Origin: Desulfobulbaceae bacterium DB1
Lineage (GTDB): Bacteria > Desulfobacterota > Desulfobulbia > Desulfobulbales > SURF-16
Direction: 5' to 3'
Length of the DNA stretch: 64,000 nucleotides
Assembly: GCA_001914235.1 (NCBI GenBank)
Contig: MQUF01000021.1
Location: 9,007-73,006, forward strand
Positions 49,488 to 51,509 of this stretch are shown piece by piece. Numbering within the stretch: position 1 is the first letter of the stretch; every line of letters starts with the position of its first letter. The translations under genes were made by a program, and so were the position numbers. The notes under the pieces were generated by a model. The model ran no database searches and was not told where the DNA came from. It saw nothing but the letters and a program-made list of their open reading frames with translations.

Positions 49488-51509
49488 TCAGTGCAGGGCA
49501 AGGGCGACAACCTCGATGACATCATCGGTGGTGACGATTTTCAGGCCGGCCAGCATGTCTTCCGGAATCTCCCGCAGGTCCGCCTTGTTGGCAATGGGCA
49601 GAATGACGGTTTTCATCCCTGCCCGCCGGGCCGCAAGAATTTTATCCCGGATGCCGCCCACCGGCAGTATCCGGCCGCTTAAGGTCAGCTCCCCGGTCAG
49701 GGCGACGTCTCTTCTGACCGGCCGCCTGGCCACCAGGGAAACCAGGGCGATGGCGATGGTGAGTCCAGCCGACGGCCCGTCCTTGGGAATCGCGCCGGCC
49801 GGTACATGGATATGGATATCGTGTCCTTCGAAAAAATCCTCGTCAATCTGAAAGGTCGCGGCGTTGCTGCGGAGATAGCTGAGTGCCGCCTGGGCCGATT
49901 CCTTCATGATATTGCCGAGGGAGCCGGTGAGGATGAGATTTTCCTTGCCCTTCATGATCGTTGCCTCGATAAAGAGTATCCGGCCCCCCGCTTCGGTGAG
50001 GGCCAGACCGGTGGCCACGCCGATTCGTTCCCTGTCATCCGCGCTTTCAAAGAAAAATTTCCGCGGGCCGAGATATTTTTCCACCAGCTCCGCCGTGACT
50101 TCGATGATCTTTGTCTTGCCGTTGCTGCTCAAAATTTCCCGTGCCGTTTTTCTGCAGATGGCGGCGATCTGTCTTTGAATGTTGCGGAGTCCAGCTTCCT
50201 GGGTGTATTCCCGCACGATTTTTCGCACCGCCTCCGGGGTGAAAACCAGTGACCGGGGCGACAGGCCCGCTTCCTCGATTTCCCTGGGGACAAGATAACT
50301 GAAGGCGATTTTTTCTTTTTCCTCTTCGGTGTAGCCGGAAAAGTGGAGCAGTTCCAGCCGGTCCAGCAGAGGGGGCGGAATGGGATCAATTGTATTGGCG
50401 GTGGCAATAAACATCACCCGGGAGAGATCAAAGGGCAGGTCAAGATAGTTGTCGATAAAATGGGTATTCTGGCTGTGATCCAGCACCTCGAGCAGGGCCG
50501 AGGCCGGATCTCCCTTGAAATCCTGGCCGATTTTGTCGATTTCGTCGAGCATGATAACTGGATTTCTGGTTCCGGCCCGACGGATTTCCTGAATGATCCG
50601 GCCGGGCAGGGCACCGACATAGCTGCGGCGATGTCCGCGAATCTCCGCCTCGTCCTTCATGCCGCCCAGGGAAATACGGATAAATTGCCGGCCCAGGCAT
50701 TTGGCAATGGACTTCTGCAGGGAGGTTTTGCCGGTTCCCGGGGGGCCGACGAAGCAGAGGATCGGGCCCTTGGTGCCAAGCTGTTTTTTTTTGTTTGCCA
50801 GGGCGCCCGTGAGTGTTGCCCGCAGTTCATCAAGCTGCAGTGGCTTGGCGAGGAAGTGAAATGATCCTTTTTTCATCGCCTCGACCGCCGTTGGAGCCGT
50901 CGCATAGCCGGTGACGATAATCACCTCGGTGTGCGGATGGCGGGCCTTGGCCTTTTCCAGTACCTCCATGCCGTCCACTCCCTGCATCTTCAAATCGGTG
51001 ACAACCAGGTCGAAGCGCTGTTTTTCCAAGAGCCCCAAGGCCTCCGCGCCACTGGCCGCGGTGGCGACATCGTAACCGTCCTTGGTCAGGACATGCTGCA
51101 TGTTGGCGCAGGCGATTTCATCGTCATCGACCAGGAGAACCGTATGGCGGGACGAGAGCCGGAGGATGCGGACGGCAAGGTATTCCATGATGCGCTCTTT
51201 GACGTCTTGGAGGCCGTAATGCTCTTCGTCGAGGATTTTCTGGGCATGATTGATATCAAGATTATCATCGGAAAAAGTGTTCCACGGCAAACTGATCAAA
51301 TATTCGAGATAATTGACGCCGATACTGTATTCGGTTGCCGAGCTGCTCGTTTTTTCGAGTTTTTCGATTTCCTTCAGGGCCGCTTTTTCGACAAGAGGCG
51401 GCATTTCCGCGTGCTGAATTGCCTCGCGTAATTTGTCAATCTCAGGTGAGGCGCATTCGCATGCCTCCTGTTCCGGTTCCTGCCATTTTGTGAACAGACC
51501 CATTTCCAT
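49488..51509 (-). CDS. Lon-family ATP-dependent protease lacking the LonA N-domain and carrying an inserted receiver (REC) domain
   Basis: [43 protein letters not shown], then a REC (LLVDDDE, VVTDLKM, IIVTGY, FLAKP), then GPPGTGKTS and VIMLDEIDK. The protease domain follows, with [13 protein letters not shown] and [10 protein letters not shown]. Confidence 0.85.
   Translation of the reverse strand: [673 protein letters not shown]

Follow-up and report, generated by a model that had tools for sequence, protein, structure and literature searches.

Regulated proteolysis by Lon is usually ascribed to substrate degrons, adaptors and allosteric ligands. Elsewhere among AAA+ proteins, NtrC1 and DctD provide the precedent for receiver control of ring assembly, and RssB and CpdR are receiver adaptors of ClpXP, through which the phosphorylation state of a receiver controls AAA+ proteolysis. 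Here we analyse a Lon protease with a receiver domain (REC) inserted in its ATPase module, hereafter REC-Lon, encoded on a 64,000-nucleotide stretch of Desulfobulbaceae bacterium DB1 (GCA_001914235.1, contig MQUF01000021.1, positions 9,007 to 73,006). We refer to this whole stretch as the window and use its own coordinates throughout. The closest described system is that of Desulfovibrio (Nitratidesulfovibrio) vulgaris Hildenborough, in which DVU3303, like the window protein a response regulator with a Lon protease, was reported as such in 2011 and forms a three-component system with the kinase DVU3304 and the sigma54 activator DVU3305 (Rajeev 2011, PMC3333781). Its TIGR label is “ATP-dependent protease La, truncation”. 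DVU3303-3305 show pairwise cofitness above 0.9, are tied to the anion transporter DVU3299, and give mutants of protease, kinase and activator that share a phenotype (Trotter 2023, PMC10102598). The binding motif of DVU3305 is GTTGC-N5-GCAAC (Rajeev 2011 supplement, PMC3333781).

The REC-Lon family is therefore already described, and the window protein is not new as a kind, because such proteins have been noted in the literature and are routinely annotated in databases. What is new here is that the receiver is an NtrC1/DctD-type paralogue of the receiver in the accompanying activator, that an operon encoding FAEAGE-motif/Usp proteins and a transporter belongs to the module, and that the window copy is uncoupled from it. 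We consider it probable that the window gene encodes a functional DVU3303-type REC-Lon with a kinase shared with the activator, that phosphorylation of D172 in its receiver controls hexamer assembly or ATPase activity, and that this particular copy has become uncoupled.

Domain architecture of REC-Lon

The gene and its domains are listed below, with residues numbered along the full open reading frame (ORF).

49488..51503, minus strand: REC-Lon coding sequence, 671 residues from M3 plus the stop codon; the first in-frame ATG is at 51509
51150..51503, minus strand: N-terminal helical remnant of LonA (residues 3-120), a three-helix bundle and the “HYGL...EYLAV” helix before strand beta1, from alignment and the AlphaFold2 (AF2) model
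50772..51149, minus strand: inserted REC (residues 121-246), from Pfam PF00072 and the AF2 fold
50100..50771, minus strand: AAA+ ATPase module (residues 247-470) with Walker A K261, Walker B D322/E323, pore-loop Y297 and the Lon lid
49491..50099, minus strand: Lon S16 protease domain (residues 471-673) with the Ser580-Lys623 dyad, Pfam Lon_C

The ORF at 49488..51509 on the minus strand spans 673 residues in a continuous reading frame. Because homologues open with MGLF..., at the third codon of the window ORF, and a GGGGG ribosome-binding site lies 7 nt 5' of the second ATG, translation probably starts at M3 (51503) and yields a 671-residue product. Pfam assigns Response_reg (residues 124-233, E=9.4e-30), AAA (251-387, E=2.6e-25), Lon_lid (412-467, E=3.1e-19) and Lon_C (471-672, E=2e-83), and finds no match to LON_substr_bdg (PF02190) in the protein. 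An earlier sequence-only reading of this DNA had predicted exactly this profile, with Response_reg, AAA and Lon_C present and LON_substr_bdg absent, and all the Lon motifs and receiver hallmarks it listed were found where it had placed them. The protein scores 745.7 bits against the NCBIfam LonA equivalog TIGR00763 “lon” (cutoff 608.05), in two stretches broken by the insert, and falls under the cutoff of the E. coli-type Lon model NF008053 (577 versus 891). Walker A is GPPGTGKTS (255-263), Walker B is VIMLDEIDK (318-326), and the catalytic dyad comprises S580 in DGPSAG (577-582) and K623 in segment 618-627.

The whole AF2 model matches LonA structures from E. coli (PDB: 6u5z), Yersinia pestis (6on2), Meiothermus (4ypl) and Thermus (7p6u) with E values of about 1e-41 in Foldseek, sharing with canonical LonA the three-helix bundle, the AAA+ domain, the lid and the S16 dyad. 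The nearest canonical LonA proteins are 56-59% identical to the window protein over the ATPase-protease region. In contrast to canonical LonA, the window protein has neither the PUA-like N-domain nor the long coiled-coil helix, and it carries a 124-residue receiver between the first ATPase helix and beta1. Absence of the N-domain, which the sequence-only reading had also proposed, is borne out: Pfam finds no such domain, the alignment to canonical LonA starts at about residue 240-250 of the latter, and tblastn with five LonA N-terminal regions found no separately encoded or frameshifted N-domain in the 64-kb window. What is left of the N-terminal region is modeled as helices 22-33, 38-52, 59-73, 86-96 and 101-119. 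Taken together, these features define the predicted product as a LonA-type protease that lacks the LonA N-domain and retains its ATPase, pore loop and Ser-Lys dyad intact.

The insert, of about 124 residues, sits cleanly in the loop “LAVRxLKxx|KGPILCF”, between the “EYLAV” helix and strand beta1/Walker A in the alignment. The sequence-only reading had correctly recognised a receiver inserted before Walker A; its estimate of about 115 residues was too short, because REC helix alpha5 is extended and carries the insert to about residue 246 (nt 50772). AF2 models the segment as a canonical (beta-alpha)5 receiver with a predicted local distance difference test (pLDDT) score of 82-86, in agreement with the fold that had been expected of it. 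Its motifs are LLVDDDE (125-131), VVTDLKM (169-175), IIVTGY (197-202) and FLAKP (219-223), which supply the switch residues: the acidic pocket D128/D129, the phospho-acceptor D172 (codon 50994-50996), T200, F219 and K222. Both connections to the host protein are short in the model, with helix 101-119 entering REC beta1 after 3 residues and the long REC alpha5 (226-245) entering AAA+ beta1 (251-255) after 5 residues.

A conserved and widespread family

A search of 5.8 billion proteins seeded with the window protein returned at least 120 clusters at 65-100% identity. These come mainly from Desulfobulbales and other Desulfobacterota, are comparable in length and show one and the same set of Pfam domains, PF00072 among them. 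A second search with a Desulfovibrionaceae seed added at least 120 further clusters of the same architecture, among them the cultured Halodesulfovibrio aestuarii, Desulfocurvibacter africanus and Desulfovermiculus; database labels of its members include “response regulator”, “S16 family serine protease” and “endopeptidase La”. We also scanned 185k genomes, one per species, for the junction of Lon helix and REC. Among the matches listed were Desulfobacter vibrioformis DSM 8776, Desulfonema, Desulfocurvus, Desulfovibrionaceae, Syntrophobacter, Desulfobulbales and Nitrospirota/Thermodesulfovibrionales. At the level of 50%-identity representatives, one full-length and three shorter or partial clusters align through the receiver, the other strong matches being canonical LonA.

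In a neighbour-joining tree of the ATPase-protease region (no bootstrap), all 17 REC-Lons analysed form one clade against 41 canonical LonA representatives. The same 17 proteins all keep D128, D129, D172, T/S200, F/Y219 and K222 in the receiver, and Walker A/B, the pore-loop Tyr and the Ser-Lys dyad in the enzyme, with S580 and K623 invariant. The receiver junction is identical in these 17 aligned members, the wider set of at least 240 clusters being judged by Pfam set and length; the Desulfovibrionaceae and Desulfocurvus members that we examined carry the identical insertion. Between the window protein and a 90% identical relative, the ratio of nonsynonymous to synonymous substitution rates (dN/dS) is 0.10 for the receiver and 0.05-0.12 for the other segments, values by which the REC segment is under purifying selection. 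The phylogenetic survey that had been proposed for this architecture thus reveals a recurrent family, mainly from Desulfobacterota and monophyletic in all 17 members placed.

An artefact, either an assembly chimera or a decaying pseudogene, was also considered; nothing was found in its favour, the sole oddity being a non-homologous 3-kb segment directly upstream of the gene. We rejected it, and regard it as having almost no chance of being correct, on the recurrence of the architecture and on dN/dS: at least 240 clusters from independent assemblies and isolates share the arrangement, the frame is continuous, dN/dS lies at 0.05-0.12 in every segment, and the family is monophyletic with conserved junctions. 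Chimeric junctions had been a concern of the sequence-only reading; since hundreds of assemblies made independently, and cultured isolates as well, show the same architecture, the junctions are real.

Long multi-stretch matches among the 50%-identity representatives, considered as richer REC/Lon fusions, were rejected, as Pfam resolves them into tandem-AAA+ Lon proteins without a receiver. These Lon-like proteins (P0121, P0124-P0126, P0128, P0130 and P0133) are 890-1380 residues long, with two or three tandem AAA+/Lon_lid modules and a single Lon_C and no receiver, an unusual architecture for Lon.

Origin of the receiver

The solved receivers nearest to the insert are those of NtrC1 (1zy2/1ny5, E=2.5e-25), an NtrC-family protein (4l4u) and DctD (1l5y), and its best NCBIfam receiver matches are sigma54 activators. 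Many REC-Lon loci (designated L001 and so on) encode such an activator beside the protease, described below as the module activator. The Lon receiver is 45-54% identical to the receivers of module activators in L005, L001 and L002 (127-141 bits), compared with 27% (54 bits) for an unrelated sigma54 activator in L002 and 27% (51 bits) for the receiver of a hybrid kinase in the window. Among the matches listed from the 185k genomes, the best non-Lon receivers are module activator orthologues and most of the others also belong to sigma54 activators. The resemblance to this class is confined to the receiver: no Sigma54_activat (PF00158) or HTH_8 match was found in REC-Lon by Pfam, and its ATPase is of the Lon type.

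Across 14 genomes, similarity between Lon and activator receivers is higher for pairs from one locus than for pairs drawn from different genomes. For the kinase-contact segments (alpha1 and beta5-alpha5) the similarity is 0.62 within and 0.56 between genomes (permutation p ~4e-4), and the alpha1 helices of the two receivers are nearly identical. These comparisons support, without proving, an origin of the insert in the activator lineage and a single kinase that would feed both receivers.

Like the NtrC1/DctD-type activators, which have a receiver of the same subfamily, the window protein runs from receiver alpha5 straight into the AAA+ domain. It differs from them in having a Lon-type AAA+ domain without the GAFTGA sigma54-contact loop, and in the position of the receiver, which lies inside the ATPase module rather than N-terminal to it; its linker is also much shorter. 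The output differs as well, being transcription for NtrC1/DctD and proteolysis for REC-Lon. RssB and CpdR, in turn, are separate proteins that act in trans on ClpX and steer substrate delivery or protease localisation, whereas the window receiver is covalently part of its protease and belongs to another receiver subfamily.

A built-in adaptor is nevertheless conceivable. The receiver would then replace the N-domain and work as RssB or CpdR in cis, its phosphorylation selecting substrates rather than setting the state of the ATPase or ring; the substrate-binding N-domain is gone, REC takes up the N-terminal face of the ATPase as that domain would, and REC does match the NCBIfam models of CpdR (1.2e-19) and RssB (2e-17). 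It is, however, far closer to receivers of the NtrC1/DctD type, which control AAA+ assembly, than to those of RssB and CpdR, and we regard the adaptor model as rather unlikely.

The usual module around REC-Lon

Lon is accompanied, in 14 of the 15 related loci, by orthologues of both the kinase (30-37% identity) and the sigma54 activator (48-59%) no more than a few kb away, frequently in the order Lon-kinase-activator within one operon. The sequence-only reading had described the gene as monocistronic with no adjacent kinase, which is true of the window and does not describe the family. Often divergent from Lon is a sigma54-driven operon encoding one or two proteins of about 55 residues, often a Usp-domain protein, a protein of about 188 residues, and a transporter of the CitMHS/DASS type with TrkA_C domains. 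The transporter adjoins REC-Lon in L001, L002, L004, L005 and L006. In the DVU3303 locus, too, there is an operon for hypothetical proteins and an anion transporter, together with the same GTTGC-N5-GCAAC sites as in the window; unlike the window, that locus has an adjoining histidine kinase and sigma54 activator, and a UspA gene in the divergent operon.

A pair of GTTGC-N5-GCAAC palindromes adjoins Lon in 10 of the 15 related loci, spaced by 85-91 bp in L002, L004, L006 and L008-L013 and by 53 bp in L014. Sigma54 promoters equivalent to that of the window operon were found in L002, L004, L005 and L006. Strict and relaxed patterns revealed no sigma54 promoter facing Lon in the window or in most loci, with one relaxed match in L006. 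The enhancer sites thus seem to serve the divergent operon and to overlap the 5' region of Lon.

The proteins of about 55 residues, the Usp proteins and those of about 188 residues share the motif “A(I/V)(T/A)FAEAGE..TA”, with 2-4 paralogues per locus, and in the small ones the C-terminus is a conserved “...NRPxLRV” sequence. They have no Pfam or NCBIfam family match, with sub-threshold Usp and FimV-C-terminal/TPR-like hints alone. FAEAGE proteins lie beside REC-Lon in 9 of 16 loci (the window, L001, L002, L004, L005, L010, L013, L015 and L016), and could possibly be substrates or partners of the protease. For the adaptor model these proteins, the Usp proteins or the activator itself would be the candidate substrates. 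Conservation of these small proteins beside REC-Lon, with their common motif and C-terminal tail, speaks for that model; the remaining 7 of the 16 loci, which have no FAEAGE genes, speak against it. A fusion of REC-Lon with FAEAGE sequence also speaks for the adaptor model. In this protein, P0177 (568 residues), the protease domain of REC-Lon is cut short and the frame runs on into FAEAGE-motif sequence, “...EVTFAEAGEFDTARVFL...”; either a deletion has fused neighbouring genes or the assembly is at fault.

A proposed phosphorylation switch in the ATPase ring

Given the paired receivers, we propose a branched pathway in which the module kinase would phosphorylate the receivers of both the activator and REC-Lon. 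The signal would turn on transcription through the sigma54 activator and would alter proteolysis through phosphorylation of D172 in Lon. The alpha4-beta5-alpha5 face of the receiver and its long alpha5 would be wired into the nucleotide-binding core or the subunit packing, and phosphorylation would then alter either the formation of the hexamer or the competence of its ATPase, in the manner of NtrC1/DctD. Control at the level of assembly or ATPase is the most likely form of such a mechanism, because the switch face of the receiver and alpha5 would join the nucleotide-binding core directly. Phospho-gating of REC-Lon proteolysis is plausible, and activation by phosphorylation is favoured over inhibition, because D. 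vulgaris without a working Lon gene behaves like strains mutated in the kinase or activator.

The LonA N-terminal region contributes to hexamer stability and is gone in REC-Lon, which leaves room for a receiver that serves as an oligomerisation scaffold in place of the lost N-domain coiled coil. Alternatively, with two near-identical receivers per kinase in a branched pathway, the Lon receiver might act as a phosphate sink that tunes the sigma54 activator. Under either model proteolysis would be constitutive, and we think it improbable that one of them is correct. A sink would have no need of an intact ATPase and protease, yet both are conserved together with REC across phyla, and the phenotype expected of a sink is the opposite of that observed in D. 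vulgaris, where loss of Lon resembles loss of the kinase or activator.

Several points weigh against phosphorylation control of the ring as set out above. The AF2 model is a monomer and not a hexamer, and is of moderate quality overall (mean pLDDT 71, parts of the AAA+ domain below 50). The link from receiver to AAA+ extends only about 5 residues past alpha5, far shorter than the coiled-coil linker of NtrC1/DctD, so the analogy may fail. The small within-genome excess in receiver similarity could reflect amino-acid composition or gene conversion. Orthology to DVU3303 was assigned from what has been published on that protein, from synteny and from the DNA motif common to both loci. No orthologue of the module kinase or activator was detected by tblastn in the 64-kb window, and none near Lon in the 90% relative (L004), which makes the shared-kinase step an extrapolation for this organism. 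Finally, no biochemical or structural study of a receiver-containing Lon was found in the literature. In this last respect the sequence-only reading, which knew of no characterised example, was right as far as biochemistry goes; it had missed that the family is described and that genetics link it to a kinase and a sigma54 regulator (PMC10102598).

If phosphorylation does control the ring, a receiver built into the ATPase would act on an AAA+ protease as a direct and reversible phospho-switch. The family occurs widely among sulfate reducers and their relatives, and its interest lies in the mechanism. Two-component gating of an AAA+ protease is testable now, because D. vulgaris is genetically tractable and has fitness data, and the family supplies a kinase, a control receiver paralogous to that of Lon, and candidate substrates. 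More speculatively, and with less confidence than we place in phosphorylation control of the ring, REC-Lon might be the first AAA+ protease with a phospho-switched ATPase ring, operated by the same kinase that activates the sigma54 activator and with the FAEAGE or signalling proteins as its private substrates. The activator would in turn induce the FAEAGE-motif/Usp proteins and the anion transporter, so that transcription and proteolysis would form one self-contained stress circuit, with the window copy as a naturally uncoupled variant. The window itself adds modestly to this picture: one more member in an unusual setting, with no kinase beside it and 3 kb of DNA between it and the enhancer sites.

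The window copy and its neighbourhood

The following features flank REC-Lon in the window; UAS denotes an upstream activating sequence.

49399..49419, minus strand: terminator-like hairpin and T-run about 70 nt past the Lon stop, predicted by consensus scan
51690..51717, minus strand: sigma70-like -35/-10 match about 190 nt upstream of the Lon start, weak in the consensus scan; possible own promoter
51504..54525, no strand: lineage-specific segment of about 3.0 kb with multiheme cytochrome ORFs at 52238-54116, from blastn synteny and Pfam cytochrome matches
54574-54588 and 54662-54676, no strand: GTTGC-N5-GCAAC palindrome pair, 88 bp apart, the DVU3305-type UAS signature (published motif)
54757..54772, plus strand: sigma54 promoter TGGCACggtggTTGCA of the partner operon, the sole perfect TGGCAC-N5-TTGC match in 64 kb
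54834-54998 (54 residues), 55053-55223 (56 residues) and 55293-55859 (188 residues, weakly Usp-like), plus strand: three paralogous FAEAGE-motif genes, from translations and motif
56075..57886, plus strand: CitMHS/DASS-type anion transporter with TrkA_C, the last structural gene of the partner operon and counterpart of DVU3299, from Pfam and NCBIfam

The window copy differs from DVU3303 in that a 3-kb cytochrome-bearing insertion parts Lon from the enhancer sites. By blastn synteny, the distal UAS lies about 3.0 kb from the Lon start in the window versus 68 bp in L004; the usual distance is about 100-200 bp. Because this insertion separates the gene from the enhancer, the window Lon gene probably runs from its own promoter. 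Judged by gene order, the copy is uncoupled from the module, a derived state, and its kinase and activator are encoded elsewhere or lost. The inserted segment does not belong to the module; its cytochromes are MtrC/MtrF-like and c7/c3-like. One cytochrome frame falls in two overlapping ORFs, 52238-53833 and 53757-54116, which suggests either a frameshift or two genes.

The sequence-only reading had named the kinases at 22.5-26.8 kb as candidates for phosphotransfer profiling. They are not orthologues of the module kinase: tblastn with module kinase and activator queries matches just this unrelated hybrid kinase region (23-26.8 kb), at 25-35% identity over the catalytic core alone. Histidine-kinase-like genes lie there at 23161-24279 and 24353-26842 on the plus strand, the second encoding a PAS-PAS-HisKA-HATPase-REC hybrid whose N-terminus bears an additional, degenerate segment resembling a receiver. 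Minus-strand ORFs at 22549-23780 have no Pfam match and are probably spurious. In L004 a hybrid kinase gene stands beside the transporter; the window has no such gene. A kinase or activator farther along the partner operon was considered and rejected, as the ORFs there encode a TPR-like protein and the IstA/IstB pair of an IS21-family insertion sequence. This element (60997-63277) comprises IstA with a Mu-transposase C-terminal domain, then IstB. Beside it, 63426-63986 on the minus strand is an apparent 3' fragment of an NrfA-like cytochrome c552 gene, covering profile positions 258-427 of 438.

On the other side, the gene after Lon is convergent and encodes a DUF3124 protein with a signal-peptide-like N-terminus (48911-49393, plus strand). 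Farther along, again on the plus strand, are a CPA2 cation/proton antiporter with TrkA_N/TrkA_C (46924-48885) and a diadenylate cyclase of the CdaA type, with YbbR either fused to it or following it (42908-44452). None of these CdaA/YbbR, CPA2 and DUF3124 neighbours recurs in the other REC-Lon loci mapped by called genes or tblastn (L001, L002, L004 and L005). An AT-rich spacer separates the Lon start from the cytochrome gene, and in it a near-perfect hairpin with a 19-bp stem, GGAAACACCATGGTGGGGAAATTTCCCCACCATGGTGTTT, is followed by a T-run (51768-51809, plus strand); it looks like a terminator, yet no plus-strand gene lies directly upstream.

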